The translations under genes and the position numbers were made by a program. Shown in pieces: positions 37,001 through 62,814 of a DNA stretch of 64,000 nt (position 1 is its first letter; each line of letters begins with the position of its first letter). The DNA comes from a virus. Where the stretch lies: IMG/VR virus record IMGVR_UViG_3300032086_003797, positions 110,626-174,625 of that record. One strand, 5' to 3'. The notes under the pieces were generated by a model. It saw only the letters and a list, made by a program, of their open reading frames with translations, was not told where the DNA came from and searched no databases.

Positions 37001-40000
37001 CGTGACGCTCTTGGCAGCTTTGACAAATTCACTTTATCTGGTGCTGCTTGGGTTGTGTATGATTACACTGGATCATCGTGGTTGTTTTCTACAGATCTTA
37101 GTGGTGCTAGCGGACCAACAGGTCATGAGAGCTTGTTATCGGCTGGGGCAATCAATAATATACACTATGTAGATATTTCTAGTGTGAGTAATGCAAAGGG
37201 TGTAATGACTGCTATGTCCTCTGCCATTTCTGCATCAGGTATAGGACAGGTCGCCACCGATGGTACTGGAGATCTAAATCAAACAGCCTCCATCACAAAC
37301 CTAACGATCCGCTCCCACAATAATCCAGGCGTAATGGAAATTACTTCGTCAGCCCAAGCATTTAGTAACATATTTATCTTACCTGATGAACAGGGTGGTG
37401 CAACTTTCTTAAGCACAGAAAACGATCTTGATAAATACACGGCAGCCGCTTCAGCGCAATCAGCTATGGGTGCGTCAACTGATGTCGAGGGTGTAACCGC
37501 AACAACAGGTTACCTCCGAAGCTTGCCGTTCGATGGTCTATCGGATTACCGCACAAATGACGCCTCAGCAATATTTACAGCCTCAAACGGACAGGTTCAA
37601 TATCGCTGGGGTGCTGGTAATAATTATAATTCTTGGCAACAAGTAAGACAGTCTCAGTTGAGGTCACGAGAAAGTATAGTTAAATCAAATCAAATAAATG
37701 TTTTTGAAGTTGCTATGAGTAATGGGAATCAAGTAGAAACACAAGTAACTCTTGATGATCCATTCTTGTTTATTTCGGCAGAGCCAATAAAAACAATATT
37801 ATCCGTGGTAGACGAAAACAGTCCTGAAGACGGTCAGTTGAAGTTCAGAGATATTACGGTGAAGCACTCGTATGGTAACCAGCGCCAAGGATTTATCAAT
37901 GGTGATGCTAATGTGAAACACAAATACACTGGCAAGGGTGACAAATTTCTTTATGATAGCTTACGAGATATAAGATCGATATCATATAGCAAGAACCTAG
38001 CTCCTGAGGAAACAGGTATTGGTAGAATTAAGAGCCACGAAATAACACAGCAAATTTATCCTCAAGCAAGGCACCAGTTCTTATCTGAGAGTATGTTGAG
38101 AAACAATTATTTGTACACCCGTTGGCAAAATGATGATGATGCTATAAACAATAGGATAGAGAACGACCTACATGTTGTATCAGATCTTTTCCAAGGCGAC
38201 CTTCCAAATCCTGATACGGATGACAAAGTGGCAGGTAGAATAGAATTAATATATAAAACACACAATAGGCAAGTGGATCGCCTGGTAGTAGGGTATACTA
38301 ATAGTCAAAACTACACATTAGAAGAGCATTACCAACACCCATTTGATATAGTGGATGGTATTGTTGCCAAAAGAACTGGCAGCGGAGGAGCATCAACTGA
38401 CGGCACAGCGTCTATCTGGCCTTTGGACTCTTTCTTGTTCAGCGATTCAGTATATTCAGGATCTATACCAGTATTATCAGGTGTTACGGTTGGTTCAATA
38501 TCAGCTAGCGCCCAATACGGAATCCATGATGCAGTACGATGGGACTTGAATTTCTTTACTAACCTTGGTGCGGGCGAACTAATGTGGTTCAGGGCAGGTG
38601 CAGCCGCCCGAACAGGTAGTCAGGGTTATGCACCGCAAGGGTGGTATACAAGAAGAAATTGCCAGTATATAAACCAAATGGTTCACCTAGATTTTGACAG
38701 CTTGTCCTCAGGGGTTAACTATACGCAATCTGTGTTTGGACCTTCGATGGGCGGAGCATTGTTTATGCCGCCTTGGACAGCAGGACGTGACCGTCGAGCA
38801 GTTGATGGCAATAACAAAGGTGAACTCATAGGATCTAGGGGACCTTTCTATAATACCTACGAAGACTTTGCTGATGGCGTAAAATTAGTTGGTCGTGGTA
38901 TGGGCATAATACCAGAGTTTAGAATTAGCGAACATATAGATCATTATGAAGGTACAAATAATGGTGATTATTTCGCTGCTAACACAGCATCATATTCTAT
39001 AACAGGTTCAGCTATCACTAACCTGAATAATTCAGCAGATGATGGATTCATGAAGAGATTCCAAAATACTGACTTTATAAAATACCTATCTCAGTTTATG
39101 GTAGAAGATCAGGATATGAATGGATTGCCAACAGATCTTAAACTAGAAGCACAGGCAGTGCAGAGGCTCTTACCTTATGATGGGTTTTATCCTGTTATAA
39201 GAACTTTGCAGATAGCTACTCTGTTTTCACAGTCTTACTCGCCAGGCTTATTCCCAGTTGCAGGCGGTCTCGGTGCCGCAGATCAAACTGAGATATCAGC
39301 TTCGGGCTGGCAGAATATATTGGATTATTTTTATGCCCCAGGTATCATGTATAACTCTATCAAGTCTGGTCTCGCAGTTGACCACCCTGTATTTACAGTC
39401 AAAGAAGACAGGATTCCAAGAGAAAAGGGAACCATAGGTGAAGTATTATCAGGTTCTACGGATGCTCAGACATTTGCAGAAATAGTAAGTGATACTAAGC
39501 GAGCAGCAGGACTTAGGCAGTCCGATCACACAATCGGACCATTGACGTCTGGCGGCGGCTCCCGTCGAGAAATAACTAAATTTTATAAAGATATTATTCT
39601 GCCTAGACGTCTTGGCACAGCCGAAGAGGTACAGCCAACAGGTAGCGAAGAATTTTTAGCCCATCAGATATATTTCCCAGACCGTATACCTTTTGAAACT
39701 ATTATTAATCCTACAGATTATTTGTTGCAAAATAAGTTTAACAGCAACCAAACATATGATTGGTTTAGAAATGACACCACATCTTCTTTCAGCTACTTTG
39801 CAAACAATAAATATGTTAAAGGTGCAGGCAACTTCTTCGGAGCAATCCCAGACGTATTCTTGGAAAACAGTAGGCTTACATCAATTGCAACCGACCCTAA
39901 CTTAGTTGACCCACAAGCTATTTCAGTACAGAGTGGTACCCTATATGCTATGGAGGTTGCTCTTAGAAAAACTGATCAATTCAATATGTACTCAAACCCA

Positions 40001-42127
40001 ATAGCCTTTGGACCCCCTACCGCCACGGGCTCCGCTTTCAATAGTGGCGATGAGATCCTAGCAACCCAAGGGCAAGCCACTCATACGTTTGATGATGATA
40101 TGGCGCAAGTCGTCACGGGTGATTGGGGAATGGTTAGATACGGATACCAGACTACGGCTAAGAATTTGCTAAACGCATCGCTAACAGGCAGTATGCCATC
40201 GGGAAGCGGCTGGCCTTTGCTGCATGGTAATCATGCACCTTACACGCCTCCTTACTGGTATGGTGAGTCATTTGCAAGAATATATTATTCTCCTACAGCT
40301 TCGGGCATGGTGACAATAAATGAGATCCTAGAAGAAGCACAATATGAGTATGGTAATGCAAATGACTATCTCTTTGATTTCAGATATAACGACCTGAATA
40401 AAACAGATGTCAGTGCTTCATTTGGGTCAGCTAATCTTAACTTACCCATGAATATTGTAACAGAAGGCGCTGGTGGCTTAGGATTACCGCCATATATGTG
40501 GAACCGAGCCTGGCAAAATAAGATGGAGATAAAGGCTTCGCTAACAATTAATAATAGACACCCAGGTAACATACAGCCAAACAATGCATGGGTCATTATG
40601 CCTAAGTGGGAATGTCCCATATTGGATTTCCCAGTTAGAGCCGAACCATGGGCTTCAACTAGTGGCTCTTATAACTTTACAGCTTCTTTTGCTAAGGTTG
40701 GTCTTGGCGACCGTGGGTTATTACCTTTCACAAGTCCAGCTAACGGCAGAGAAGTGTGCCCACAACAAGGTATGTGGCACCAATACGGGGTAGTGCCAGA
40801 TGCAGGAGAAGGTGTGCAAATGGTGCTCAGAGATATATCGTCAGGAGATAAAGAGAAGAGAATGAAAGCTCAGATAATTTATCCTGGCACCCAAGGACAA
40901 CCAAATGTTATTGGTGCAGCGGAAGAAAAGATGTTACCTAAAATACCAAATTCGCTGATGGATATAACAGCGTTTGGGGATAGAAAGAGGAAAGTAAGGT
41001 CGCTGGCTAAATTGGTAGGCTTTCCATCCGAAGTGGTTAATAAGCCAGTTGATTTAGGTCGAATAGCTAATAAGAAAACAGTTCATGAAGCTATAATAGC
41101 ACTGCCATATTATGAGGATGCGGAAGCTAATATACAATTTATTCCAATACCCTTGAAAGACGAGTCTAACCAGGTGGTAAGTGAGTTTGGAAAGCAAACA
41201 GCCAAGCTCAGGAAATCATTATCAAAATACATATTGCCACCAGTTATAGAACAAAGAATGTCTTACTTGGTGCCAGAATCATACCCATTATCTTCTGATG
41301 GGGAAGATCTTAGATTAAGACCAGATAGTGCTGTTTACAGCAATGAGGACCCACCACTAGCAATGTATTTGTTTGAGTTTACTACGGAACTAAGTAAACA
41401 GGACTTAGCAGACTGGTGGCAGGGAATAATGCCAGAACCAAGCACTAAGTTTAACAATACAACCATGAACATATCTACAATTGATCATGCTATGCCTGGC
41501 ATCGGTTTGCAAGATTTTGGTGCAAAGCCTGGAGCAGGCGGTGGTAAAGTAGACGAAAGGCTTCGTGACCTTATGGACACATCAAGGTTAGTAAGAGGCG
41601 GCTCGAAAAACGACCCAGGGTTTAGACCTGATATTAAGTGGATGGTGTTCAAAGTGAAGCAGCGTGCCCCAGCTACTTATGAAGAGCTTATCAAGAAAAG
41701 TCTAACTGAAGCAGGTGCAAAAGTGCCAGGTGCTACAGGTCAGACAGCATATGAAAATAGACCTAAAGGTTTCAACTGGCCGTATGATTTCTTTTCTGTG
41801 ATTGAATTAGCGAAGATTAACACCACAGTTACTTTCAGACCAGATATAGACACTATCACAGTAGAAGAAAAAGAAAATACTACACCAGTCAAAAGCCTAG
41901 AGGGCGGCAAGAGAGAAGAGGCACAAGTACCACCTCCAAAGCGTGGTCGCCCTAAGAAATCACCAGCTAAAAAAGAGCCAGCCAAGAAGACAACTGCGCC
42001 AAAGAAAAATCCGCCTAAAAAGCTACCACCTAAAGCTAAATCAAAACCTGCTCGACCTAAGGATGTTGCAAAGAAAAAAGTCTTACCTAATAAATCTAAC
42101 AGCAATCCAAAGAAAACACTCAAATAG
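31007..42127 (+). CDS. Giant virion structural protein (3706 aa) with LamG/concanavalin-like domains, a duplicated insert domain and a Lys/Pro-rich tail
   Basis: WDHYAFV..LYENG..LDEFRFW LamG-like motif; KSKGTRKS baseplate-like motif; internal ~150-aa repeat; basic C-terminus. Confidence 0.65.
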   Translation: MSIKKLFDAKKAGTLGGATRSTLKKLGDNVESPEQIEAALSKARAFSPKIDFSDPANFVKYGSAYRYYYDTFGYIKDYYPYDGSSREKLEFYNGLSPFEQYIFNNEYPKTTGYVTIGAIYGTDGASKQGYTTPTTAEYIQFKGGPHSGTFFATGSGLSNNLEFGGISGSTVEFFYNKTEFDSTISSPTEVILDIWNGVSSGSHDYGRLTIETDSGSADRFYVSYQSGSSGVFKASVPTAGGLTLGSGSWDHYAFVFSNSDDSTSIDLYENGTCKQSNILTGSSINLVTGSLIGRLGALRTAPGPIQASGYGTQATATDAIDMAGYQAAGDPAIKFNITIPVAAGGSNTTITIKFDISSGGSPVSAGADHITIGTAGSNDAANAALVIKAINGDTDSRITYGNGSGDGSSGIGVQGLTASAGSSSTKVTLTISKGGTSGNINSAVAHGAGTVNVVDVANFTGGAVIPAGDGKLSASLDEFRFWKEPRTAEEIGRNWYMGVNGGANTTINNSGLGIYYKFNEGITQVSTTDNVVLDYSSRLSNGAWTGYSTSGTRNTGSAIVSSSAAGFETADPIIYDTHPTYISSRDDLSSLGQQYDYTNNSSLYYTMPGWIIEQDERNGEELAKLTQIMGSYLDTLYAQVGGVLTVKDVSYPTGSVQESPNNDRLLSSLGFEAPDLFDSVGEIVRFLDKDDKRPLESSIHQIKNIIYKNIYNNLSYILKSKGTRKSFGNTLRCMGIDEKIVKISTYADNVEQTITSSYKAIPTEKKFVDFSGLRRYDDQAATIYQHYYADGYDGGSSGLISGNLDLGDNAFTLQADILFPLKPSPAEASYIEPTSPSSSLFGFHTPKITTTTSTDTAWASNTIDFGLQVYAVHATTDYSEITSPQGASRDAYFVVEDRFGNILLKTDTVREVYQNTRWVFALSARPKTYPFSQEVDGTDNDDQSYIIELYGTSFDLEDKRASFDSSKIVNFVTGSSTLASAKRIYAGAHRTDFSGSLLTRSDIRLNSCRFWNTFLTSSVVDQQAKDADAYGLVHPYRNVKTFQTSGSSVFIPAIESLALNWDFETVTGSDASGQFRVDDFSSGSNSTAYENNYQVEYAGTVQRHHSARGDFFKASDTPVRKEYFPSLRLQAPEELSSDDMITVIVEGSDDSVYGRAPRPIRHFFAVEKSMYDAISNDMLEMFASIDEFNNLIGEPVNKYRAEYKDLKKLREIFFRRVTGQRVDLDKYLDYYKWFDGALTNLVEQLFPASAPVAENTRNVVESHVLERNKYQHKYPTLEEYPFEPSGSIKGGYEQQYSWRFNHHPITMTGSVASAADAIDMDGYQAAADPSSRFTIQIPVAAGGSNTTITIKFDVSSGGSPSSYGANAITIATAGSDDASNAALVVKAINGTADSRITYGNAVSVGDGCAGIGVLGITAAEGSNNKKVTLTMTVAGTNGNITSAIAHGAGTVNLVDVNDFTGASDDIIKNDQGENCSWWANRAERNANPLNLGPNAVVGAATTLDRQNIFTSVRKKELDNQRNKFYKFGGAVEKSVAGGHNQSFNKIKANVLSFDQVSDQSTCTDEEVPAGSPLEKSRQKFRISIAGQTYKGDRMAPFSLYKALVPSEHNKQLTNTGLSGSHMTNIHEDSYYGSGFEVPMQGPFTSQHVGGLLARARTSQIEGAVNLRRENYRLTIASGTGSLARLDTEIGANSSGKGHYYRGITAKRPVNIANIAHQTASDGGGPGGSGGTIVGNFDKNYQVLQTSGRKINNLDFRDDPDAYNPSAFLSPYVGGLVETPVPSRRNTEYTLKARTTNKTIFVNRFSSPGSVETNTPAFLDFNSQEIAPNNALPFRNMLIRSVNEGHNTLSQGWGGHINTTQRSFLGLGYTIQDLNTGSFSTVVTSRHDVNRNAKPKPFLTQFDLSAFGQGQIESIGSGSIHNNNFITTPIPQADNMSWFMAYSGSDTQTYNHFFHSGGLMPESITVPSPPNLEGQSGINEGTPFSISAVAELTTIGIDARDALGSFDKFTLSGAAWVVYDYTGSSWLFSTDLSGASGPTGHESLLSAGAINNIHYVDISSVSNAKGVMTAMSSAISASGIGQVATDGTGDLNQTASITNLTIRSHNNPGVMEITSSAQAFSNIFILPDEQGGATFLSTENDLDKYTAAASAQSAMGASTDVEGVTATTGYLRSLPFDGLSDYRTNDASAIFTASNGQVQYRWGAGNNYNSWQQVRQSQLRSRESIVKSNQINVFEVAMSNGNQVETQVTLDDPFLFISAEPIKTILSVVDENSPEDGQLKFRDITVKHSYGNQRQGFINGDANVKHKYTGKGDKFLYDSLRDIRSISYSKNLAPEETGIGRIKSHEITQQIYPQARHQFLSESMLRNNYLYTRWQNDDDAINNRIENDLHVVSDLFQGDLPNPDTDDKVAGRIELIYKTHNRQVDRLVVGYTNSQNYTLEEHYQHPFDIVDGIVAKRTGSGGASTDGTASIWPLDSFLFSDSVYSGSIPVLSGVTVGSISASAQYGIHDAVRWDLNFFTNLGAGELMWFRAGAAARTGSQGYAPQGWYTRRNCQYINQMVHLDFDSLSSGVNYTQSVFGPSMGGALFMPPWTAGRDRRAVDGNNKGELIGSRGPFYNTYEDFADGVKLVGRGMGIIPEFRISEHIDHYEGTNNGDYFAANTASYSITGSAITNLNNSADDGFMKRFQNTDFIKYLSQFMVEDQDMNGLPTDLKLEAQAVQRLLPYDGFYPVIRTLQIATLFSQSYSPGLFPVAGGLGAADQTEISASGWQNILDYFYAPGIMYNSIKSGLAVDHPVFTVKEDRIPREKGTIGEVLSGSTDAQTFAEIVSDTKRAAGLRQSDHTIGPLTSGGGSRREITKFYKDIILPRRLGTAEEVQPTGSEEFLAHQIYFPDRIPFETIINPTDYLLQNKFNSNQTYDWFRNDTTSSFSYFANNKYVKGAGNFFGAIPDVFLENSRLTSIATDPNLVDPQAISVQSGTLYAMEVALRKTDQFNMYSNPIAFGPPTATGSAFNSGDEILATQGQATHTFDDDMAQVVTGDWGMVRYGYQTTAKNLLNASLTGSMPSGSGWPLLHGNHAPYTPPYWYGESFARIYYSPTASGMVTINEILEEAQYEYGNANDYLFDFRYNDLNKTDVSASFGSANLNLPMNIVTEGAGGLGLPPYMWNRAWQNKMEIKASLTINNRHPGNIQPNNAWVIMPKWECPILDFPVRAEPWASTSGSYNFTASFAKVGLGDRGLLPFTSPANGREVCPQQGMWHQYGVVPDAGEGVQMVLRDISSGDKEKRMKAQIIYPGTQGQPNVIGAAEEKMLPKIPNSLMDITAFGDRKRKVRSLAKLVGFPSEVVNKPVDLGRIANKKTVHEAIIALPYYEDAEANIQFIPIPLKDESNQVVSEFGKQTAKLRKSLSKYILPPVIEQRMSYLVPESYPLSSDGEDLRLRPDSAVYSNEDPPLAMYLFEFTTELSKQDLADWWQGIMPEPSTKFNNTTMNISTIDHAMPGIGLQDFGAKPGAGGGKVDERLRDLMDTSRLVRGGSKNDPGFRPDIKWMVFKVKQRAPATYEELIKKSLTEAGAKVPGATGQTAYENRPKGFNWPYDFFSVIELAKINTTVTFRPDIDTITVEEKENTTPVKSLEGGKREEAQVPPPKRGRPKKSPAKKEPAKKTTAPKKNPPKKLPPKAKSKPARPKDVAKKKVLPNKSNSNPKKTLK
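31946..32392 (+). repeat. Intragenic repeat domain, copy 1 (~150 aa)
   Basis: ATATDAIDMAGYQAA...IPVAAGGSNTTITIKFD...DSRITYGN...AHGAGTVNVVDVANFTGG. Confidence 0.9.
34940..35392 (+). repeat. Intragenic repeat domain, copy 2 (~150 aa)
   Basis: ASAADAIDMDGYQAA...IPVAAGGSNTTITIKFD...DSRITYGN...AHGAGTVNLVDVNDFTGA. Confidence 0.9.
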
Positions 42128-51476: not shown

Positions 51477-52571
51477 ATGTCTTATCTCCATCGGTTCGGT
51501 CCAGATGATATATTTCATAACCAACTAAAAACGCACCCGCAGTTTAAAGTTACACTGTACAGCGGCTCTGCCTACATTAACGATCGCAGAAATGATAATG
51601 TAGGTAATGGCGTTATTGATTTATATGAAACCATTAATGGAGCTTTTCCGTTTGCCGTAAAAGATGGCACAACAACAGTACTAAACACAACAAACCAAAA
51701 CACATTTAATACCTCAGATTACGGTGATACCTTCAACGGCACATATCCACTATCAGCATCCGTAGACAGGGAAATGATCCAAAAGAATGGTGACCGCAAA
51801 AGAATGGCGGCATTACAAAATACTATAAACTATTACGAGTATCAAAACAAGCATTTTAACTTTGCAACACACTTCACTGGTAGTGATGTCAACTTGGTTA
51901 GTATTCCTAGTATAATGTTTGGCTCATCAATTAAAAAAGGCAGCGTAAAACTAAACTATTATTTTACTGGATCTCTGATGGCTACAGCAGAGGACTCGAA
52001 ACGCAATGGTGAACTTATAGAAACCAAGGGACCAAATGTTGGTAGCACAGTTGGGGTTGTTTTATACAACGAGGGGTTCATGCTGTTAACGGCTAGTTAC
52101 CATATTTCTAATGTCAACACAGATTGTTATTCGGGTTCAGCATCAAGTCAATTTGCTCCTAACTGGGCAAACTTTGCAGCGTACAACACGGGAACATTTC
52201 ACCCTAGCTCATCAATCTCAGAGATTAACTTTGAAGGCACACATACGATCCCTACAGTGACCATGTTTGCACACGCTCCTGAGGGTCAACTCAACGCCTC
52301 GATGAATCCAACATTTTATACCGATGGGCAGCAGTATGATGCAAATGATTTATCTAACACGTCTTTTGTAGAGCCAGATAAAATCAATATCAAAAACACA
52401 ATGCAATCAGTTTTTTGCTCATCAAGCGCCCAAATAGAAAAGCAGGTGTTTATAAGTAAAATAGGCATTTATGATCAAGACAAAAATCTAATAGGAGTAG
52501 CCAAACTAGCAAACCCAGTAAGAAAAGAAGAATCCCAAGGATTCACATTCAAATTAAAGCTTGACATTTAA
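51477..52571 (+). CDS. Virion structural protein, paralog of 50329..51465
   Basis: IKKGS, G.V.Y..G, N.S.NPT, C-term ISKIGIYD..KNLIGVAKLANPVRK..KLKLDI. Confidence 0.55.
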   Translation: MSYLHRFGPDDIFHNQLKTHPQFKVTLYSGSAYINDRRNDNVGNGVIDLYETINGAFPFAVKDGTTTVLNTTNQNTFNTSDYGDTFNGTYPLSASVDREMIQKNGDRKRMAALQNTINYYEYQNKHFNFATHFTGSDVNLVSIPSIMFGSSIKKGSVKLNYYFTGSLMATAEDSKRNGELIETKGPNVGSTVGVVLYNEGFMLLTASYHISNVNTDCYSGSASSQFAPNWANFAAYNTGTFHPSSSISEINFEGTHTIPTVTMFAHAPEGQLNASMNPTFYTDGQQYDANDLSNTSFVEPDKINIKNTMQSVFCSSSAQIEKQVFISKIGIYDQDKNLIGVAKLANPVRKEESQGFTFKLKLDI

Positions 52572-52589
52572 ATAAAGATAGTATATAAT
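52561..52589 (+). promoter_or_regulatory. Perfect-consensus sigma70 promoter TTGACA-N17-TATAAT
   Basis: TTGACA 52561-52566, TATAAT 52584-52589; ATG at 52597. Confidence 0.85.
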
Positions 52590-52596
52590 AGTCTGC

Positions 52597-53175
52597 ATGA
52601 TACTAGGATTAGATATTTCATCCACTATGATAGGCGCAGCCGTCATAGATCCCACTACTGGCGACCTGGTGCACTGTAAGGGCTGGGACTTGTCTAAGAT
52701 AGACAACAGCTACACCAAATACGAGATGGTAGGCTCAGAGCTTTATACTCTAAGAAGAGAGCATGAAATCGAACATGTTTTTATTGAGACAGCATTGAAG
52801 AGATTTGTCCCTGGTAGATCAAGGGCAGATACTATTATCAAATTGGCTAAATTCAACGGTGTTGTATCCTGGTTATGCTTTAATGAGTTGGAGCTTGAGC
52901 CAACATTTATCAATGTCAATACGGCTCGCTCTTTATATGGGCTATCCTTCCCTCGTGGCACTAAAGGACCACAAAGAAAGAAGATGGTTATCCAGGCGGT
53001 TATAGAAAGAGAAAAGACGTCGTTTCCTTATGAGATGGCTAGAGGCGGAAAAAACTATAAACGTGGAACAGACGACCGAGCAGATGCAGTTGTAATTGCT
53101 AGGGCAGGCGAGTTTTTGTTGAAGAACAAAGATAACAAAGGTTTCCTAACAGAAAAGATAGTTTTGACAGAGTAG
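52597..53175 (+). CDS. RuvC-like Holliday junction resolvase
   Basis: ILGLDISST..G, VFIE, L.KFNGVV, DDRADAVVIA. Confidence 0.8.
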   Translation: MILGLDISSTMIGAAVIDPTTGDLVHCKGWDLSKIDNSYTKYEMVGSELYTLRREHEIEHVFIETALKRFVPGRSRADTIIKLAKFNGVVSWLCFNELELEPTFINVNTARSLYGLSFPRGTKGPQRKKMVIQAVIEREKTSFPYEMARGGKNYKRGTDDRADAVVIARAGEFLLKNKDNKGFLTEKIVLTE

Positions 53176-53177
53176 TG

Positions 53178-53186
53178 ACTACTTAC
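53178..53186 (+). promoter_or_regulatory. Candidate late-promoter motif ACTAYTTA
   Basis: ACTACTTAC directly after the ruvC-like stop, upstream of the leader-ORF array. Confidence 0.4.
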
Positions 53187-53221: not shown

Positions 53222-53521
53222 ATGAAGCTCACTGAAGACATGATTAGAGAGTTGATCAGAGAAGAGATCAACACCACCAATATTCAAGAAGAACCCGAAC
53301 CCGCCCCAGCAGAAGAATCTGATGTACCTAACCAGGTTAAGGTTGCCCTTAAGCAAATTATGGGCGACGGCGGTGATGCAAAAATTCTAGAAAAACTTAA
53401 GATGTATATGCAGAAGCAAAACGTCGCTAGACAGACAATGGTTGCAGATGTTCTGCTGAATATGATCGGCTTAGATTTAGAGCCTACGAAACTTAGAGCG
53501 GCTGTTACCACCAATGCATAA
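53222..53521 (+). CDS. Leader-family protein (MKLTEDMIRELIREE), unknown payload
   Basis: AAGGAG RBS before ATG 53222; type-B leader. Confidence 0.65.
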   Translation: MKLTEDMIRELIREEINTTNIQEEPEPAPAEESDVPNQVKVALKQIMGDGGDAKILEKLKMYMQKQNVARQTMVADVLLNMIGLDLEPTKLRAAVTTNA

Positions 53522-53969
53522 TATATTCACAGGCTGGAAACGCTTCCTTGCGGAAGAAAAAATGTCAGACCTCGGCAGCGGCGGTGCTTATGTCGCCAAG
53601 GTCGGTGGCTTGAAGGTTGTAATAGATCTAGATGATTTAGATCTGCAATCTACTAAGCACAGTAAAGAGCGACAATTTAGGCACGATAGAAAGATATCGA
53701 ACGAAGCTATCGTTGGAACAGTAGAGATGGCATTAGGCAAAATAATAAATGACTATGCAAACGGCGAGCTAGCTAATGAAGAGGCATTTCACATCAAGGG
53801 AGTCAGTAAAGCTAAGTCTGTCCCAGACCTTAATGTTATAGGGGTGCTCAATATGCAAAAAGGTCCTGACACACTAAAAGTAATTACAGTAATGAGAAAA
53901 GATGACTTCAAGACTGATAGTTTTGGAGGAGGTCAGCAGAAAACATATACTGTAAACCCAAGGCAGTAA
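53514..53969 (+). CDS. Leader-family protein (W..FLAEE) with possible RelE/BECR-like nuclease payload
   Basis: MHNIFTGWKRFLAEE; STKHSKERQFRH...KVITVMRK resembles DUF4258/BECR-fold patterns. Confidence 0.45.
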   Translation: MHNIFTGWKRFLAEEKMSDLGSGGAYVAKVGGLKVVIDLDDLDLQSTKHSKERQFRHDRKISNEAIVGTVEMALGKIINDYANGELANEEAFHIKGVSKAKSVPDLNVIGVLNMQKGPDTLKVITVMRKDDFKTDSFGGGQQKTYTVNPRQ

Positions 53970-53984
53970 CGAGGAGTCAGGGAT

Positions 53985-54263
53985 ATGAACTTCACACATG
54001 ATAACCTCAGGGAACTTATTCGAGAAGCGATCTTAGACGAAAAGAAAAAGCGTAAAGCTAAGAGAAAAGCTTCTAGTCGCCGTAAAGCTAAGAAGAAAAA
54101 AAGACGAGTAAAGCGTAAAGCTAAAAAAGCTAAAAGAGATGCTTGCTACCATAAGGTCAAGGCACGTTATGATGTATGGCCTTCAGCTTACGCTTCGGGT
54201 GCTTTGGTAAAGTGCCGCAAAGTTGGCGCAGCGAACTGGGGCGAAGGTGGTAAAAAGAAATGA
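53985..54263 (+). CDS. Leader-family highly basic protein
   Basis: MNFTHDNLRELIREAILDE then poly-K/R tract and DACYHKVKARYDVWPSAYASGALVKCRK. Confidence 0.65.
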   Translation: MNFTHDNLRELIREAILDEKKKRKAKRKASSRRKAKKKKRRVKRKAKKAKRDACYHKVKARYDVWPSAYASGALVKCRKVGAANWGEGGKKK

Positions 54264-54625
54264 AAATCACCAAAGATCAGCTACGGGAAATGATCAGAGA
54301 AGCACTTCTTGACGAAAAGAAAAAAAAGAAGAAGCGCAAGAAGAGAAAAGTAAAACGTAAGAAACGTAAGCTCACCAGTAAGCCAGGATCAGAATCGAAT
54401 CTTGGTGACTGGTTTGGTCGCAAAGGCGCACCAGGCAGTAAAAGCGGATGGGTAGATTGCAACACTTGTCGCAAAGATAAAAAGACAGGCAGAAAAAAAT
54501 GTAAAGCTTGTGGACGTGGTAGCGGTGAAAAGCGATCCAAATATCCAAAGTGCAGACCCACACCAGGGGCATGTAGCAAGCGAGGTAACTACGGTAAAAA
54601 ATCAAAGGCAGGTAAAAAAGGATGA
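54260..54625 (+). CDS. Leader-family basic Cys-rich protein
   Basis: MKITKDQLREMIREALLDE, poly-K, WF..GWVDC..CGR..YPKCRP. Confidence 0.65.
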   Translation: MKITKDQLREMIREALLDEKKKKKKRKKRKVKRKKRKLTSKPGSESNLGDWFGRKGAPGSKSGWVDCNTCRKDKKTGRKKCKACGRGSGEKRSKYPKCRPTPGACSKRGNYGKKSKAGKKG

Positions 54626-55323
54626 AGATTACAAAAGACCAAATTAGAGAACTGATTAAAAAGCAAATCGAAGAGCGTTGTCAAAAAGGTTACAAGACCC
54701 ACCCTACCCGCAAAACAAAAGTAATGTTTGGTAAAAAATATAGAAATTGTGTTAAGGCAGAATCAATCTCAGAGGGTGTACAATACCACATGCAAAATAA
54801 CCTTCCTATCACGGAATGTGTTTATCGTCTTGGTTCAGACGCTTACTTTGCCACAATCAAGGAAGTCAAACAACTCAATGAAAGAGGAATGTACAACTTA
54901 TCCAAAGAGGAAGAAGATTTCATAAATGAAAATCCTGACCTTGGAGAATGGGCTTGGCACGAGGAGGAGGGGCAAAATGTCCCGTTAGGATTCCCCATGT
55001 ATGTAGAAGCTTCCCCAGAGTTGTATGAGGCTAAGAAGAAGAAGGCAAAAAAGAAAGGTCCACTTGGGAAGCCAATGAGAAACACAGGCTCTGGCAAAAA
55101 ATATAAAGTTTATATGAAAGATCCTAAAACAGGGAACATAAGAACTATTACTTATGGAGACGCAAAGGGTGGTCTTGAGGGCAACTGGAATGACCCAGAG
55201 GCAAGAAGCTCATATGCTAAACGTCACAACTGTGAGGACAAGAAAGACAGAATGTCAGCAGGCTATTGGTCATGCAGATCCCATAAGGATTTTGGAAAGA
55301 ACGTACCAGGCAGGTTCTGGTAA
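54622..55323 (+). CDS. Leader-family multi-module protein
   Basis: MKITKDQIRELIKKQIEE; modules CQKGY..NCVK, CVYRLGS, and KKYKVY..GD..KRHNC..AGYWSC. Confidence 0.65.
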   Translation: MKITKDQIRELIKKQIEERCQKGYKTHPTRKTKVMFGKKYRNCVKAESISEGVQYHMQNNLPITECVYRLGSDAYFATIKEVKQLNERGMYNLSKEEEDFINENPDLGEWAWHEEEGQNVPLGFPMYVEASPELYEAKKKKAKKKGPLGKPMRNTGSGKKYKVYMKDPKTGNIRTITYGDAKGGLEGNWNDPEARSSYAKRHNCEDKKDRMSAGYWSCRSHKDFGKNVPGRFW

Positions 55324-55324
55324 T

Positions 55325-55603
55325 ATGTTCCCGTTTGAAGAGACAGTTATAAAGCATAACACAGTATTGCGTGAGTTTGCTCATGATGTCGATTCGGACG
55401 AGCTTATCTGGCACCTTGATCGTGAAGATAGAAAAATTAGAGTCCTGGAGTCTAACGGATGGAAATTACAACTTGACAACAAACTACCTATTATGTTAGA
55501 AGGTGGTAAGAGCTACTGGATACCTAAATACATGTACCACAGAGTTATTAAGGGACAAGGTAATCTTGTTGTTGAAATAAGAAAATACGAGGAAGAACAA
55601 TGA
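55325..55603 (+). CDS. Small cupin-like protein
   Basis: WHLDREDR...W.LQLDN..P...IPK..YHRVIKG.G.L (cupin-like His motifs); ATG 55325. Confidence 0.5.
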   Translation: MFPFEETVIKHNTVLREFAHDVDSDELIWHLDREDRKIRVLESNGWKLQLDNKLPIMLEGGKSYWIPKYMYHRVIKGQGNLVVEIRKYEEEQ

Positions 55604-56064
55604 AAAAACTACTAACAGAGTGGCGGAAGTATATAAACGAAGAAATAAAAGTAGCTGTCAATGCTGCTAAGAAGTATATTTGCCCACCTGCAACCCAAGA
55701 TCTCGAACTCAACACCAGGAACCGTGACGCCTCTATCAAAGCAGAGCACATTCAGTATGGACCGCTCAATGTAGATGAGCCAGGTGATTACTGGAAAGAT
55801 ATTGCTGAGTACTGGAACACAACTGAAGAAGCAGCTAAAAAATCAAATTGCAGCAACTGTGTTGCGTTTGATATTTCTCCACGAATGAAAGAGTGTATGC
55901 CAGGTGATACATCAGATGAAGATGGTGAACTAGGCTACTGCTGGATGCACCACTTTAAGTGTCACTCGGCTCGATCTTGCAGAACATGGGCTAAGGGTGG
56001 ACCCATAGATAAAGACGAGATATCCCACGACTGGCAAGAGAGAAATAAGTTCCCAGAGGAGTAA
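55600..56064 (+). CDS. Leader-family protein (MKKLLTEWRKYINEE) with Cys-rich metal-binding payload
   Basis: CSNCVAF..C..GYCWMHHFKCHSARSCRTW. Confidence 0.65.
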   Translation: MKKLLTEWRKYINEEIKVAVNAAKKYICPPATQDLELNTRNRDASIKAEHIQYGPLNVDEPGDYWKDIAEYWNTTEEAAKKSNCSNCVAFDISPRMKECMPGDTSDEDGELGYCWMHHFKCHSARSCRTWAKGGPIDKDEISHDWQERNKFPEE

Positions 56065-56065
56065 T

Positions 56066-56233
56066 ATGTTAACAAAACACCTTATAGAACAAGACATGAC
56101 ATACCTCCAGCACCTACTACATGCTGGCAAATATTCTGCCAAGCTAATGTTGTGTGCAGGTGGCTTGCTTATTCATGCAATATTTCCATTTATATTGGTG
56201 GATTTTGCATCAAAAAGAGTGGAGCTAAAGTAA
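56066..56233 (+). CDS. Small hydrophobic protein (DUF6356-like), 55 aa, absent from ORF track
   Basis: MLTKHLIEQDMTYLQHLLHAGKYSAKLMLCAGGLLIHAIFPFILVDFASKRVELK*; fills the gap exactly. Confidence 0.65.
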   Translation: MLTKHLIEQDMTYLQHLLHAGKYSAKLMLCAGGLLIHAIFPFILVDFASKRVELK

Positions 56234-56234
56234 T

Positions 56235-56768
56235 ATGAAGCTTCTTATGGAACAGTGGCGACAGTTTATAAATGAGGGCTCAAAGTTCAAGCTCAAGGGT
56301 GACTCGGAATACTTTCGCATTGACCTTCAAGGTATTGGTTATGCCCAAGGGATGCAGCACCTAAGATTTAAAGAATGTCAGTCAGATGTTGACGCTCTTA
56401 TGGAGACACCAGAATTTATAAAAGCCAAAGAAAAATACGAAGCCAACAATACCACAAAAGATATGGCACAAGACGAAGACGGCAATTATTTTATGAAAGA
56501 AGTGCCAGCTAAGTTCAGACCAAGATTTTATGATATAGAAAACGCATGGATCACAAACCCAGAACAAAGAGGTAAAGGGTACGGCAAAGAATTGTATAAA
56601 GCATTTATCGCCCAAGCAGCAGAATACGCCAAGTCTTATGGCGGTGTATTTGTTGGGGCTCACCACTGCACCATAGGCTCAGGAACCTCGGACGATGCCA
56701 AGAGAGTATGGAAATCAATAACGAGGGACTATACATCATCAGGTGATGTGGTATTTATAGGACTATGA
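56235..56768 (+). CDS. Leader-family protein with GNAT-like acetyltransferase payload
   Basis: MKLLMEQWRQFINE; PEQRGKGYGKELY (GNAT motif A), SDDAKRVW. Confidence 0.65.
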   Translation: MKLLMEQWRQFINEGSKFKLKGDSEYFRIDLQGIGYAQGMQHLRFKECQSDVDALMETPEFIKAKEKYEANNTTKDMAQDEDGNYFMKEVPAKFRPRFYDIENAWITNPEQRGKGYGKELYKAFIAQAAEYAKSYGGVFVGAHHCTIGSGTSDDAKRVWKSITRDYTSSGDVVFIGL

Positions 56769-57388
56769 AAGAACTATTAACAGAGTGGCGGAAGTATTTA
56801 TTGTCCGAAGGGATGAAGACTATAAAAGATCTCCCTGAAGGATCAAGCATACTTGTTAGCATTGGACAAGATATTCAATTGGCTTATAAGCACGAGGGTC
56901 AAACACTCTACCATGCAAACGCTGGTGATCCTCCTCCACCTGACGATGCCCCTTGGGGGTCCATGACTTCAATAAAACTAAAGAAGCCTTGCCTAGACGG
57001 CTATCAGGTCGTGCAGGCATCCGCCAGAAAAGGTTGGGGTCCACTTTTATATGACATAATGTTAGAACTGACAAGCGAACTTGGCGGCGGGCTTACTGCC
57101 GACCGAGGCAGCGTTTCTAGAGATGCCTATCAAGTATGGGATTATTATATGCGGAAACGAAAAGATGTAGAGGCTAAACAGCTAGACATTACCAATCGTG
57201 ATTTTGAGAAGGTTACCCCTGACGATGAATCCGATGACTGCGAACAATCATCTTCAATTAGGTGGGCTAGAGCCAACAACCTTGATAAGGAGTACGGCTG
57301 GTCATCTCAGCCCACAGCTTATTTATACAGCAAGGGTTCAACTCCAACATTGGACGCTTTGCGTGCGGCAGGTAAATTAGAAGAATGA
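56765..57388 (+). CDS. Leader-family protein with divergent GNAT-like payload
   Basis: MKELLTEWRKYLLSE; ARKGWGPLLYD..GLTADRGSVSRDAYQVW. Confidence 0.55.
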   Translation: MKELLTEWRKYLLSEGMKTIKDLPEGSSILVSIGQDIQLAYKHEGQTLYHANAGDPPPPDDAPWGSMTSIKLKKPCLDGYQVVQASARKGWGPLLYDIMLELTSELGGGLTADRGSVSRDAYQVWDYYMRKRKDVEAKQLDITNRDFEKVTPDDESDDCEQSSSIRWARANNLDKEYGWSSQPTAYLYSKGSTPTLDALRAAGKLEE

Positions 57389-57918
57389 AAAAACTACTAA
57401 CAGAGTGGCGGAAGTATCTGAAGGAATCAAAGTTCCTACCAGATACTTTGTATCATGGCACCACTGAGGTGTTTGATAAATTCGACGACAGCAAGGTAGG
57501 TAGAAGAGATAGTGGTAACTTAGGTAGAGGCATATACCTATCGATCGATAGTGACATGGCTATGAGTTACGCAGAGGAAAATGCCAAGCGATTTGGAGGA
57601 GACCCAGTTGTCCTAGAAGTAGAACACAGCCTAGAGAATGTAGCCAACTTCAATGAGCATATAGACGACTTGAAACAACTAGGTGTAAACTTCCCACCAA
57701 AAGCAAATGACCCTGAACGCTCGGCAGCATTAACAAAATACTTTACAGAGAAAGGCTTTGATGGTGCCCACTCGGGTCACGAAATAGTCGTCTTTGATGT
57801 TAGCAAACTAAATATAAAAGGCGTCGGTGATATTCCTTCAACCAAAGAGGCTTGGAAGATCAAGGCAAGAGCTAAAGCTGACAAGCTTGGAATACCATAT
57901 GAGGATTTAGGATTATGA
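57385..57918 (+). CDS. Leader-family protein with ADP-ribosyltransferase-like payload
   Basis: MKKLLTEWRKYLKES; LYHGT, LGRGIYLS..A.SYA, GFDG..EIVVFD (H-Y-E type ART pattern). Confidence 0.7.
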   Translation: MKKLLTEWRKYLKESKFLPDTLYHGTTEVFDKFDDSKVGRRDSGNLGRGIYLSIDSDMAMSYAEENAKRFGGDPVVLEVEHSLENVANFNEHIDDLKQLGVNFPPKANDPERSAALTKYFTEKGFDGAHSGHEIVVFDVSKLNIKGVGDIPSTKEAWKIKARAKADKLGIPYEDLGL

Positions 57919-58304
57919 AAAAACTATTAAACGAATGGCGACAGTTTCTCAAAGAGTCACAAGTGTTTGACGAAGAAGAAATGGTTAACGCACTAAACAA
58001 AAACGGTAGAGATATGTATGGATTAATTGATGATCTTAACGATCTAGGGTACGATGCTAAGGAAAGCCCTGCTCTGATACAAAAATATACTAGGGACGGA
58101 GACAGAAATTATAAACAACCAAAGGTGAAAGAGTTTATAGCAGACCACCCAGAGGGTGTCTATATAATAGTGCATCAGCCATTAATGGGCATAGGCACTA
58201 TTAACCTTCTGATAAATGGTGATCAAATATCTGGAGATCAAAAGCTAATAGGAGGAAGGGCTATAGCTGGTCCTGTCGGTGTTGTAAAGGGCAAAGAAGA
58301 ATAA
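57915..58304 (+). CDS. Leader-family protein, unknown payload
   Basis: MKKLLNEWRQFLKES. Confidence 0.65.
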   Translation: MKKLLNEWRQFLKESQVFDEEEMVNALNKNGRDMYGLIDDLNDLGYDAKESPALIQKYTRDGDRNYKQPKVKEFIADHPEGVYIIVHQPLMGIGTINLLINGDQISGDQKLIGGRAIAGPVGVVKGKEE

Positions 58305-58305
58305 A

Positions 58306-58971
58306 ATGAAAAAGCTAATGACAGAGTGGAGAGAGTTTTTGAAGGAGGGTCTTGATCCTCGTATACAGAAGCAATTGAATGCTTTGTTGGAGCGTGAGAA
58401 TCTCGGCATTGTATTGAGTGTATTTGCAGGCGGCGACGGTGCTGAAGTAAGATATGTAAAAATAGAAGATTACGAAAACGAACAGTTTTCTGATTTGAAA
58501 GAAGGCGCTGCGGTTTACGGCGGCGTAGAAATCAGCAGAGCCCTTGAGGATGAGCAAGGACCGTGTTTCGATGGACACCTTGTCATAGGATCAAGAGCGG
58601 AAAGAGGTTGGGGTCCATTGTTATATGAGGTTGCTCTAGAGTGGGCTTCGCAGAACGGTGGCGGTCTTATGCCCGATAGGTTTTCGGTATCCGATTATGC
58701 TTTAGCGGTCTGGTCTAAATACGAAAAACGATCAGATGTAAAACCAAGTCAAATGGATGTTGCCCATGGTCTAGATGGGATCTCTTCAAGAACGCTTGAT
58801 TATTTCCCGCAACTAACCCCAGACAAAAAAGAAGACGATTGTGACCAGACCGTGCCTATTGGCAGAAGAAGCACTGACTGGCCTAAAAGTCCCCTATCTA
58901 AGATATATTCTAAAAGTTCTGCTGATACTATCAAAGCACTACAAAAAGCCAAAAGGTTAATTGTAGTATGA
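58306..58971 (+). CDS. Leader-family protein, paralog of 56765..57388 (GNAT-like)
   Basis: MKKLMTEWREFLKEG; PC.DG, A.RGWGPLLYE..GGGL..DR.SVS..A..VW, TPD...DDC.Q. Confidence 0.6.
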   Translation: MKKLMTEWREFLKEGLDPRIQKQLNALLERENLGIVLSVFAGGDGAEVRYVKIEDYENEQFSDLKEGAAVYGGVEISRALEDEQGPCFDGHLVIGSRAERGWGPLLYEVALEWASQNGGGLMPDRFSVSDYALAVWSKYEKRSDVKPSQMDVAHGLDGISSRTLDYFPQLTPDKKEDDCDQTVPIGRRSTDWPKSPLSKIYSKSSADTIKALQKAKRLIVV

Positions 58972-59216
58972 AAAAGCTTCTAACAGAGTGGCGGAAGTTT
59001 CTAAACGAGATTAAGCTTGACATTAAAGTTGGTGATGTTCTCTTGGGCGGCAAGTTCAAAAACAAGCGAGTGATTGTAAAGAGTATTGGAAAAGATGCAT
59101 TAGGGCAGCCAACAATCAACGGTCAATCTCTCCTTAAGTTTAGGATTGAAAAGAATCTACCAGATAGCAAGAAAAGCAAAAAGACTTTAGAAGCTGGGAA
59201 TAAAGATGAATCATAA
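58968..59216 (+). CDS. Leader-family protein with small KOW/SH3-like payload
   Basis: MKKLLTEWRKFLNE; IKVGDVLLGGKFKNKRVIVKSIG. Confidence 0.6.
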   Translation: MKKLLTEWRKFLNEIKLDIKVGDVLLGGKFKNKRVIVKSIGKDALGQPTINGQSLLKFRIEKNLPDSKKSKKTLEAGNKDES

Positions 59217-59592
59217 ACTCATAATGGAAAACTGGCGAGGTTACCTCAACGAGGAAACATACCTCAACGAGGAGCTTCTTGATGAGGGGTTGAGAGATTG
59301 GCTAAAAGCTAAGTCTACATCGGCGATTGAATCAATCAAGTCTAGCTTGGCAAAAGTTGGGCAGGAGATAAAAGAGTCTGGCGAAGCGGGCAAGCTTATA
59401 CTAAAAGCAGCCAAAGGCACGGCGTTATCTGAGGAAGAGAAATCATTTTTAAAAAGACAACTACGAGACATAGGAGTGGGAGCAGTTTTGCTAGCACTCT
59501 TTATACCCCCAGGTGGCGCACTTGCAATTGGCGCACTTGTAAAATTAGGCAAATATTTTAATATTGATATCTTGCCTAGTGCATTTATGTAA
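59206..59592 (+). CDS. Leader-family protein with LETM1-like hydrophobic payload
   Basis: KLIMENWRGYLNEE; LSEEEK.FLKRQLRD..LLALFIPPGG. Confidence 0.5.
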   Translation: MNHKLIMENWRGYLNEETYLNEELLDEGLRDWLKAKSTSAIESIKSSLAKVGQEIKESGEAGKLILKAAKGTALSEEEKSFLKRQLRDIGVGAVLLALFIPPGGALAIGALVKLGKYFNIDILPSAFM

Positions 59593-59607: not shown

Positions 59608-59616
59608 ACTATTTAC
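59608..59616 (+). promoter_or_regulatory. Candidate late-promoter motif ACTAYTTA
   Basis: ACTATTTAC in intergenic gap before GAGG RBS and ATG 59632. Confidence 0.4.
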
Positions 59617-59631
59617 TGTGAGGTGTTTAAC

Positions 59632-60699
59632 ATGAAAAAATTTAAAGTACGAATAATCAAAGAAGATAAAGAAGCTTATGGCGGCGATATTGGACGACAT
59701 GGTGGCTCTGGCAGAGTCAGGATGGCACAGTCCCTTAAGAAGGGGGATACAGTTCAATTTCAAGTTGCTGACTATAAAACGAATACTCGTAAATATTACA
59801 AAGGTATTCTGATGATGCTAAAAGGTGAAAAGGGTTACACTCGTGTTGTTTCAGACCGAGCCCAAGTTAAAGTAACTCATGAAGCAGAGCAAACTTATAG
59901 ATCTAGCCACGATCAGCAAGGTAGCATATCTGATTTTGTTCCCGTACCAGAGCCATATATTACTGAGATTTCTGCTGATGAGCTTGTTGCTGTCAACGAA
60001 GGTATGAATGAAGACAGGTACTCGCAAGAAATAGATATAGAGGGTAAAGCCAGAGAATTGGCTGGTCTCCCAGAGGAAGCCATCAATGATATTGCTGCCA
60101 TGGCTAAACAAATGAAAGATAAAGAATCAGGCGCTGGCAACCGTCAAGATAATCTAGAAGAAGCAAGATTCTCCGAGTACGGCAAGATCGACGCTGAGAT
60201 GGGTAACCCGCCTTCAAAGATTGGGCAGGGCGACGAAGAGTACATGAAGGCGTACAATGCCGTCCTTATAGCGAAAGGCGAGGAGCCCCTACCTATCGTG
60301 AAGCCTGACCAGAAATACCTTGACGCACTTCAAGGTGGTAAATTGTCTAACGATTATACGGCTCGCAACCGTAAAGATGAAGGATATCGAGGCTCAGAGG
60401 AAGAGAAAAAAGCAATGAGCAAAATGTCCAACAAAGAGTTATACAAATATATTACTCGTGACAGGCACACTGTACCAAATCTAAAAGGTGACATGGGACC
60501 ACTCCCAGGACTTGAAGGACCATTCCAATTTGAAGATGGGCAGGTACTATATTACGATCCAAAGGCTGGTAAATACTACGATCGTGGTAAAGACATGTTT
60601 GTTGAGAACCCACCAGGGAACCGTAAAGATGTAGAAGAATCTCATTGTGGTGGTAAGAGCCCTGGTAACCGTCGCATCAAGGTCCGAAGAAAGAAATAG
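59632..60699 (+). CDS. Multi-module hypothetical protein with repeated xNRxD linkers
   Basis: GNRQD, RNRKD, GNRKD, GNRR repeats; GLEGPF..GQVLYYDPKAGKYYD module. Confidence 0.6.
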   Translation: MKKFKVRIIKEDKEAYGGDIGRHGGSGRVRMAQSLKKGDTVQFQVADYKTNTRKYYKGILMMLKGEKGYTRVVSDRAQVKVTHEAEQTYRSSHDQQGSISDFVPVPEPYITEISADELVAVNEGMNEDRYSQEIDIEGKARELAGLPEEAINDIAAMAKQMKDKESGAGNRQDNLEEARFSEYGKIDAEMGNPPSKIGQGDEEYMKAYNAVLIAKGEEPLPIVKPDQKYLDALQGGKLSNDYTARNRKDEGYRGSEEEKKAMSKMSNKELYKYITRDRHTVPNLKGDMGPLPGLEGPFQFEDGQVLYYDPKAGKYYDRGKDMFVENPPGNRKDVEESHCGGKSPGNRRIKVRRKK

Positions 60700-61216: not shown

Positions 61217-61244
61217 TTGACAACGGCATAGCCTGTGGTATTAT
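61217..61244 (+). promoter_or_regulatory. Sigma70-type promoter (TTGACA-N16-TATTAT with extended TG)
   Basis: TTGACA 61217-61222, TGG-TATTAT 61236-61244; GGGAGG RBS before ATG 61267. Confidence 0.7.
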
Positions 61245-61872: not shown

Positions 61873-62814
61873 TTGAAAGATGTAACGGCAGTAAAGAAAA
61901 AGAGAATACTAGATCAGGTCCTTGGAGGTTCAATCCGACAGGGATCTGAACTTTTATATCCATGTGTTTGTTGTGGTCATCACAAGCCAAAGCTATCCGT
62001 AAACATTCTCAAGGAAGCTTTTAAGTGTTGGGTCTGCGACTACAAGGGTAAATCTCTGCGCCGCCTCGTTCGCCGCTATGGCGACTTTAATCACGTTTAT
62101 CAATGGCGTGAGTTTGAAGAAGACCCAATAGATTCAGACCTGAAGGATCTATTCGTATCTGTTCAAGAGGTAGAGCAGGTCATCGAACTACCAGAGGAAT
62201 TTACATCTTTGGCTCGCCCGCCAAGACCAACAGATAATAGGGCACGAAAATATCTTAGATCTAGAAATGTGTCCAAGCAGGATATACTTATGTGGCGACT
62301 GGGGTATTGCCCAACAGGACAATATGCTAATAGAATTATTATACCCAGCTTTTCATCCAGAGGAGAATGTAATTATTTTGTAGCCAGATCTTGGGATAAG
62401 AAGTGCTGGCCTCCATATTTGAACGGACCAGGCAGCAAAGATATAATATTTAATGATCTACTAGTTGATTGGGATAAAGAAGTAATATTGGTAGAGGGTG
62501 TGTTTGATGCCATCGCTTATGGCGAGAACGCCATTCCTCTATTAGGGTCCACTCTGCGTGATGATAGTAAACTGTTCCATAAAATTATTTCTAACGACAC
62601 ACCTGTTCTTATGGCTTTAGATGATGATGCTAGAGACAAGAGTTTGAAAATAATTAAGTCTCTCTTGACTTATGACGTAGAAGTTCGCCTGATGGATACT
62701 TCAGGATATAAAGATGTTGCTGAAATGCCTAAAGCTGTGCTTTTAAATCGAGCAGCGACAGCACCGTTTATGAATCCAACAAACTACTTAATGCTGAAGG
62801 CTTCTGGTCTATAG
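61873..62814 (+). CDS. DNA primase (zinc finger + TOPRIM)
   Basis: CVCCGHHKPKL..FKCWVC; RIIIP; LVEGVFDA; ALDDDA; KD. Confidence 0.85.
   Translation: MKDVTAVKKKRILDQVLGGSIRQGSELLYPCVCCGHHKPKLSVNILKEAFKCWVCDYKGKSLRRLVRRYGDFNHVYQWREFEEDPIDSDLKDLFVSVQEVEQVIELPEEFTSLARPPRPTDNRARKYLRSRNVSKQDILMWRLGYCPTGQYANRIIIPSFSSRGECNYFVARSWDKKCWPPYLNGPGSKDIIFNDLLVDWDKEVILVEGVFDAIAYGENAIPLLGSTLRDDSKLFHKIISNDTPVLMALDDDARDKSLKIIKSLLTYDVEVRLMDTSGYKDVAEMPKAVLLNRAATAPFMNPTNYLMLKASGL

Follow-up and report, generated by a model that had tools for sequence, protein, structure and literature searches.

Why should gene after gene in one part of a phage genome open with one of only two short peptides, when the proteins that follow have little else in common? 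This question is raised by the IMG/VR virus record IMGVR_UViG_3300032086_003797, of which we analysed positions 110,626 to 174,625 (64,000 nucleotides, "the window"), the final 64 kb of one 174,625-bp contig estimated to be 95% complete. Coordinates refer to the window unless they are marked "genome", which denotes the whole record. Between 53222 and 59592 a first-pass annotation, made from the letters alone, had pointed to an array of open reading frames (ORFs; array 1 in the following) with two types of N-terminal leader, A and B, and had proposed that the leaders are packaging tags cut off by a prohead protease; it counted at least 13 such ORFs, and all 14 starts that it listed do open ORFs with leader A or B. 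In our opinion, the two leaders are probably capsid-targeting sequences of the T4 type in a distant lineage, and by analogy with the T4 internal proteins the phage most likely loads the tagged proteins into its capsid and injects them together with its DNA.

Two leaders on otherwise unrelated proteins

Both leaders are N-terminal and comprise 14 residues, with the consensus MKKLLTEWRKYLxE for type A and MKITKxQLRxIIKE for type B. Profile hidden Markov models (HMMs) of the leaders, a scan proposed by the first-pass annotation, were searched against all 4,185 possible N-termini of the genome, and the scores were bimodal: 19 canonical members, some of them outside array 1, reached E values of 1.4e-6 or lower (nine of type A, 1.8e-10 to 1.3e-6; ten of type B, 2.4e-10 to 1.4e-6), and the signal is not due to chance, because the next best candidates have E values above 2. 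Looser variants (window 59206; genome 55214, 60240 and 14521) bring the total to about 23 tagged genes, roughly a tenth of the gene set. The interior of array 1 also includes two ORFs without a leader (Table 1).

The leaders as first described needed some correction. Most of the listed ORFs follow the consensus, but those at 53514 (MHNIFTGWKRFLAE) and 59206 (MNHKLIMENWRGYLNE) are divergent variants of leader A; the leader at 54622 has Lys instead of Glu at position 14 (LIKK); and similarity stops at the Glu in type A, whereas type-B leaders remain similar up to about residue 16 (IIKEEL). Searching with a degenerate DNA pattern of leader A gave 14 stretches on 13 further IMG/VR contigs, each of which carries several tagged genes of both types. 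The 92 distinct leader proteins of the genome and these 14 related loci form 55 payload clusters, 35 of them singletons, which bears out the statement that the payloads are mostly unrelated, and no cluster mixes types A and B. Across the 92 proteins the information content amounts to 2-6 bits at residues 1-14 and in type A drops below 0.9 bit from residue 15 onwards; the regular expression used for collecting inflates the positions that it constrains, but at positions 3, 6, 10 and 13, which it leaves free, 2-2.9 bits remain.

The occurrence of a leader on clearly non-virion genes had been named beforehand as an observation that would speak against packaging; no leader was found on any recognisable replication or metabolic housekeeping gene. 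Signal peptides were considered as well and rejected, because the leaders are on inspection charged, amphipathic helices without a hydrophobic core.

A head protease and a matching, predicted maturation site

The source of the sequence is a distant T4-type myovirus, uncultured and marine. Its capsid protein matches Pfam Gp23 (E 1e-74), tail sheath, tail tube and baseplate wedge proteins are encoded, nearly all genes of the genome lie on the + strand, and the head module runs in the order portal, two small genes, S77 protease, scaffold and capsid protein. The gp21-type prohead protease, for which the first-pass annotation had suggested a search, is thus present: a Peptidase_S77 protein at genome 13928-14524 (E 2.3e-28, 95.6 bits, above the cut-off), in which GELDHP and SSRGLGS align to the catalytic His and Ser of T4 gp21, and whose N-terminus shows VLQE where T4 gp21 has LLIE. 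In the alignment of the capsid proteins, LLKE↓A falls on the cuts of T4 gp23 (FLTE↓A) and gp24 (LLRE↓S); L56, L57 and E59 are shared by all of 120 homologues, and position 60 varies among small residues. The capsid protein is therefore predicted from its sequence to be cleaved at LLKE↓A.

The same motif closes the leaders. T4 IPII and IPIII begin with MKTYQEFIAE. In this tag targeting depends on residues 4 and 7 and processing on residues 8 and 10, and Asp at residue 10 (P1) abolishes cutting but leaves targeting intact (PMC9026906). Counted back from the Glu, residues 4, 7, 8 and 10 correspond to P7, P4, P3 and P1, and at these positions leader A has W8, F/Y11, L12 and E14 and leader B has L8, I/L11, I12 and E14. 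A MAFFT alignment of the ADP-ribosyltransferase (ART) family discussed below places the leaders of different families in register.

A tag is also found within the head module itself, where the gene directly after the protease opens with MKKSQLKELIKE. This tag is kept in the relative L022, and in Flavobacterium phage immuto, a cultured phage that likewise encodes an S77 protease, several genes begin with tags of the MKKSQLKELIKE type. Another recurrent N-terminus of immuto (NC_055915; L029-L037), MENFDLKKFLVEN(K/R)LT, stands on at least four genes (1803, 103806, 117631 and 118632), which occur alongside genes with MKKSQLxxIIKE-type tags.

Payloads

Most payloads match no known family in Pfam or PHROG. 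Their median length is 142 amino acids in type A and 83 amino acids in type B, and several type-B payloads are extremely basic (isoelectric point, pI, 10-11), as are T4 internal proteins. The most informative payload is encoded at 57385-57918: it matches Pfam ART-PolyVal (PF18760) with 32.9 bits against a cut-off of 31.2, and H24, Y51 and E133, the H-Y-E triad, are nearly invariant in the family alignment. In its structure model (predicted local distance difference test, pLDDT, 87.5) residues 2-14, the leader, stand apart as a helix (pLDDT about 62), and residue 21 is the first of the domain; a search of the PDB ranks a chain of the cyanophage A4 pre-ejectosome first (E 3.9e-7) and the ART domains of PARP13 and PARP4 next. 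As modelled, the payload has the fold of an ADP-ribosyltransferase.

An exhaustive search with the ART domain yielded 467 homologues, nearly all of which start at query residue 14-21 and most of which are domains of polyvalent proteins of 1,000-5,800 amino acids, a class for which entry into the host along with the DNA has been predicted (PMC5512222). Other short tags with a Phi-x-Glu ending are seen on small homologues that stand alone: the one of Salmonella phage Vi01, which also has an S77 protease, starts with MKTFLEFYRE, and further ones start with MKTFLEYITE, MLTFEAYLAE or MRFREFLDFLNE. One homologue is without any tag, and another, P0083, is known from a 1.4-kb contig only.

Other payloads can be assigned less firmly. 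The one of the gene at 56235 scores 19.3 bits with PF00583 (GNAT), below the cut-off of 20.7, and matches a PHROG acetyltransferase family with E 4.9e-4; the gene at genome 55214 has a leader variant on a P-loop (AAA_33 / zeta-like) protein; and the structure model of the 56765 family (pLDDT 50.7) was too poor for a fold search. In the tagged protein of genome 54560-55210 (L019:5561-6211) a second type-B-like motif was seen near the C-terminus (...TLNKIIQEELRNVLLE...), which may be a C-terminal propeptide or the remnant of a fusion with the next cassette.

Expression signals

Throughout the genome the octamer ACTAYTTA is present in 18 copies on the + strand and two on the - strand, mostly intergenic and in positions that are conserved in relatives. 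Most of the genes that it precedes are virion structural genes, and its distance from the gene start is usually 15-72 nt, as for the scaffold, sheath and adaptor-like genes; for the baseplate-wedge and 3,706-aa genes (window 27185 and 30940) it amounts to 67-125 nt. The octamer also directly precedes the first tagged gene of array 1, that of array 2, the gene at genome 60240 and the gene at window 62824; four of the five leader loci are thus found directly behind the octamer, and the fifth is inside the head operon. We regard ACTAYTTA as a candidate late promoter specific to this lineage. It differs from the T4 late promoter TATAAATA, which is not enriched and does not occur upstream of the arrays.

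Near-perfect sigma-70-type sites are also enriched (19 on the + strand of the genome versus 2.9 in shuffles), often about 21 nt before gene starts and in several cases as TTGACA-16-TATTATAAAT. Both arrays lie downstream of a perfect site: in addition to the one ahead of array 1 (Table 1), a second TTGACA-17-TATAAT precedes the polymerase gene ahead of array 2. Intrinsic terminators above chance level were not found in the array region. T4 internal proteins are made both early and late (PMC6071114), and the two kinds of signal before the arrays, sigma-70-type promoters and ACTAYTTA, would match such early-and-late synthesis.

Constraint on the leader and exchange of cassettes

Repeats of this kind could in principle be maintained for the sake of the nucleic acid, as a recombination junction, a translation-initiation element or an operator, with no function of the encoded peptide. 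Such an explanation would accommodate leader pairs that are identical over 33-34 nt, the cassette insertion or deletion relative to L010 that is bounded by leaders, and the many tagged genes whose start overlaps the upstream stop codon (ATGA). We nevertheless consider it the least probable of all readings discussed here: codon positions 1 and 2 of the leaders show 76-80% identity and the far more variable position 3 only 50-61%; 43-54% of the codon pairs that encode the same residue use different codons, so that about half of them are synonymous variants; and the 30 nt upstream, with the ribosome-binding region, are not conserved, their identity of about 30% being that of random sequence. Selection on the leader acts on the peptide, not on the DNA.

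Recombination at the leaders is compatible with a function of the peptide and secondary to it. The leader DNA probably also acts as a recombination patch, to judge from the identities over 33-34 nt, from the one extra cassette of L010, both ends of which lie in leaders, and from the 59206 gene, in which YLNE is duplicated at the place of a domain inserted in L010.

Probable capsid targeting and its alternatives

If the leaders are capsid-targeting sequences, the life of a tagged protein may be pictured as follows. It would be made both early and late; its N-terminal amphipathic helix would draw it into the scaffolding core of the assembling prohead, where the gp21-type protease would cut after the leader Glu (Phi-x-x-Phi-Phi-x-Glu, after P1) and free the cargo, which would stay in the DNA-filled head and be ejected into the host with the genome. 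The cargo would be a changeable set of about 23 proteins, among them an ADP-ribosyltransferase, GNAT-like, P-loop kinase-like and polybasic DNA-binding-type proteins and many small ones, and could plausibly act in host takeover, counter-defence or the balancing of DNA charge, while the repeated leader DNA would provide a homology patch where whole cassettes are gained and lost. Every prediction of the capsid-targeting proposal that can be tested computationally held; as targeting, cleavage, packaging, injection and the functions of the cargo are all deduced from sequence, the verdict is one of inference, not of measurement.

Several observations weigh against this picture. The leaders share with the T4 tag MKTYQEFIAE a pattern only, at a length of 14 versus 10 residues and without clearly alignable homology, and the P1 Glu is missing from the leader of 54622 (LIKK), from the degenerate leader of the L010 copy of the 55600 gene (FVD) and from that of P0025 (FVNK). 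The arrays adjoin replication genes behind sigma-70-type promoters, outside the head operon. The assignment of ACTAYTTA as a late promoter is suggested by the genes that it precedes, and PhoH is among them. A hydrophobic helix, uncommon in head cargo, forms the C-terminus of the 59206 payload, and the capsid protein is only 37-45% identical to those of the nearest cultured relatives. A complex prediction for the scaffold with the 82-aa tagged protein gave a score of 0.00 and hence no answer, which weighs neither way.

The neighbourhood of the arrays would also fit proteins that remain outside the virion. The leader might be a docking or oligomerisation helix by which early host-takeover proteins, active only after their synthesis in the infected cell, would bind a common host or phage partner (RNA polymerase, the ribosome or a chaperone, for instance); the amphipathic nature of the leader, the perfect sigma-70-type promoters upstream of both arrays and the replication genes beside them would all agree with that. 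We hold this to be unlikely, since it leaves unexplained why similarity ends at the Glu of a protease motif that recurs at the maturation site of the capsid protein, why a gene of the head module bears a tag, why ART homologues in other phages with an S77 protease have T4-type tags, and why the leader loci share their upstream motif with structural genes. A recognition sequence for some other modifying or processing enzyme, one enzyme acting on many precursors as in ribosomally synthesised and post-translationally modified peptides (RiPPs), is a further reading, but appears very improbable: no radical-SAM domain (PF04055) was detected in the 95%-complete genome, although the domain was found in each of 14 control genomes; neither array has a candidate modifying enzyme next to it; and the leader fits the S77 cleavage pattern position by position.

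Capsid targeting might be extended to a loading code with two addresses, A for folded enzymes and B for small, very basic or acidic proteins, which would differ in their place in the head, copy number or fate, with the leader DNA as an integron-like site of exchange. This extension is speculative and rather doubtful; were it true, an abundant marine lineage would exchange injectable cargo cassettes from one large shared pool, and these could be recognised from sequence alone.

Comparison with known systems

The mechanism as such is already known from T4; what characterises the present system is its large size, the two classes of tag and the exchangeable cassettes. In common with the T4 internal proteins, otherwise unrelated proteins share a short N-terminal tag with a hydrophobic or aromatic P7 and P4, an aliphatic P3 and Glu at P1; the genome encodes an S77 protease and the same motif stands at the capsid maturation site; several payloads are basic, and the genes lie outside the head operon with signs of early and late expression. 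In contrast to T4, the tag has 14 residues instead of 10, there are two tag classes with non-overlapping payload families, about 23 genes are tagged versus three internal proteins plus Alt, and the present system is predicted from its sequence.

In T-even phages, the hyperplastic ip loci (Repoila et al. 1994, as cited in PMC12373910) are likewise clusters of unrelated genes that are recognisable by their common leader only and whose content varies among close relatives; injected anti-restriction functions are known for Ip1-3. Recombination at the leaders has been proposed for these loci as well. The arrays described here are much longer, with up to 13 tagged genes in a row, and they include predicted enzymes. 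T4 Alt, a packaged and injected ADP-ribosyltransferase, resembles the product of the 57385 gene in that both are ARTs of T4-type phages and carry an N-terminal propeptide; the ART found here is, however, a small H-Y-E enzyme (PARP-like, ART-PolyVal), whereas Alt is described as a member of the R-S-E clade (PMC5512222). The ART payload belongs to a domain family defined among the polyvalent proteins (Iyer et al. 2017, PMC5512222), but the domains are here encoded by separate small genes, each with its own tag, and not as one giant polypeptide. Phages phiKZ, 201phi2-1 and SPN3US, which represent a different lineage, also have many head-internal proteins (inner-body or ejection proteins) that are matured after Glu by a gp21-related protease (PMC9026906), but their propeptides are long and varied, without a single short shared leader.

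That tags of this kind enable T4-like phages to load a variety of proteins has been suggested by workers on T4 (PMC9026906). Provided that the tags function here as they do in T4, one could read from the genome of an abundant, uncultured marine lineage which proteins it injects; this set would comprise about a tenth of the genes, with 55 payload families in only 15 genomic stretches, and would provide a list of candidate host-takeover and counter-defence proteins, the ADP-ribosyltransferase included. The T4 tag used in phage engineering could moreover be compared with two further natural capsid-loading tags, and the cultured relative immuto offers a place where the prediction can be tested.

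Gene content and relatives

The features of array 1, its surroundings and the remaining leader loci are compiled in Table 1.

Table 1. Leader genes, neighbouring genes and expression signals (window coordinates unless marked "genome").
Feature	Position	Strand	Remarks
Sigma-70-type promoter TTGACA-17-TATAAT	52561..52589	+	12/12 matches; ahead of RuvC-like gene and array 1
RuvC-like gene, no leader	52597..53175	+	First after promoter; weak Pfam RuvC match (E 0.057), below cut-off
ACTACTTA, copy of ACTAYTTA	53178..53185	+	44 nt before first array gene; position kept in L010 and L016
Leader B gene (MKLTEDMIRELIRE), 99 aa	53222..53521	+	Acidic payload
Divergent leader A gene (MHNIFTGWKRFLAE), 151 aa	53514..53969	+	HMM E 7.7e-9; no Pfam or PHROG match
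Leader B gene, 92 aa	53985..54263	+	Polybasic stretch (payload pI 11.1) and phrog_727 domain (E 1.3e-20)
Leader B gene, 121 aa	54260..54625	+	Polylysine, Cys-rich payload (pI 10.7)
Leader B gene, 233 aa	54622..55323	+	Lys14 instead of Glu; C-terminal phrog_7595 domain
ORF without leader, 92 aa	55325..55603	+	Absent from relative L010
Leader A gene, 154 aa	55600..56064	+	Cys-rich payload; four homologues among compared sequences (itself, L003, L006, L016)
Small ORF without leader, 55 aa	56066..56233	+	Conserved in L010
Leader A gene, 177 aa	56235..56768	+	GNAT-like payload (below Pfam cut-off)
Leader A gene, 207 aa	56765..57388	+	One-residue insertion (...YLLSE); GWGPLLYD family
Leader A gene, 177 aa	57385..57918	+	ADP-ribosyltransferase (ART-PolyVal), H24/Y51/E133
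Leader A gene, 129 aa	57915..58304	+	Leader HMM match
Leader A gene, 221 aa	58306..58971	+	Paralogue of 56765
Leader A gene, 82 aa	58968..59216	+	Basic payload; leader aligns to two L010 leaders flanking one extra cassette
Leader A variant (MNHKLIMENWRGYLNE, then second YLNE), 128 aa	59206..59592	+	C-terminal hydrophobic helix
ACTATTTA motif	59608..59615	+	15 nt before 358-aa gene 59623-60699 (no leader)
Near-perfect sigma-70-type promoter	61217-61244		
ACTACTTA motif	62783..62790	+	41 nt before isolated leader B gene; same spacing in L010
Isolated leader B gene (MKFTESELREIIKE), 88 aa	62824..63090	+	Basic payload
ACTAYTTA copies in window	27185, 30940, 49305, 53178, 59608, 62783		
Second array (array 2)	genome 53150-56131		Five canonical B, one A, one B variant on P-loop kinase-like protein
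Single B-variant gene	genome 60240		
Gene opening with MKKSQLKELIKE	genome 14521		Directly after prohead protease, head-morphogenesis module

Megablast of the array region against GenBank phages gave no match, and neither did tblastn of one small type-B protein against the same phages. Among cultured phages, the closest capsid proteins are those of Microcystis phage Mel-JY01 (37% identity) and of Flavobacterium phage immuto (45%, partial), and thousands of homologues of the scaffold and capsid proteins are found in marine metagenomes, Tara Oceans included.

Two further observations concern genes outside the arrays. The tail/baseplate region of the window contains ORFs of 3,706 and 1,799 amino acids (31007-42127 and 21899-27298, respectively), neither of which has a Pfam match. 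In the head-morphogenesis module, a homologue of ribosomal protein bS21 (Pfam S21, E 9.4e-8; genome 14893-15186, L020:6894-7187) is placed between the tagged post-protease gene and the scaffold gene, and an annotated S21 gene is also present in the head module of Mel-JY01.

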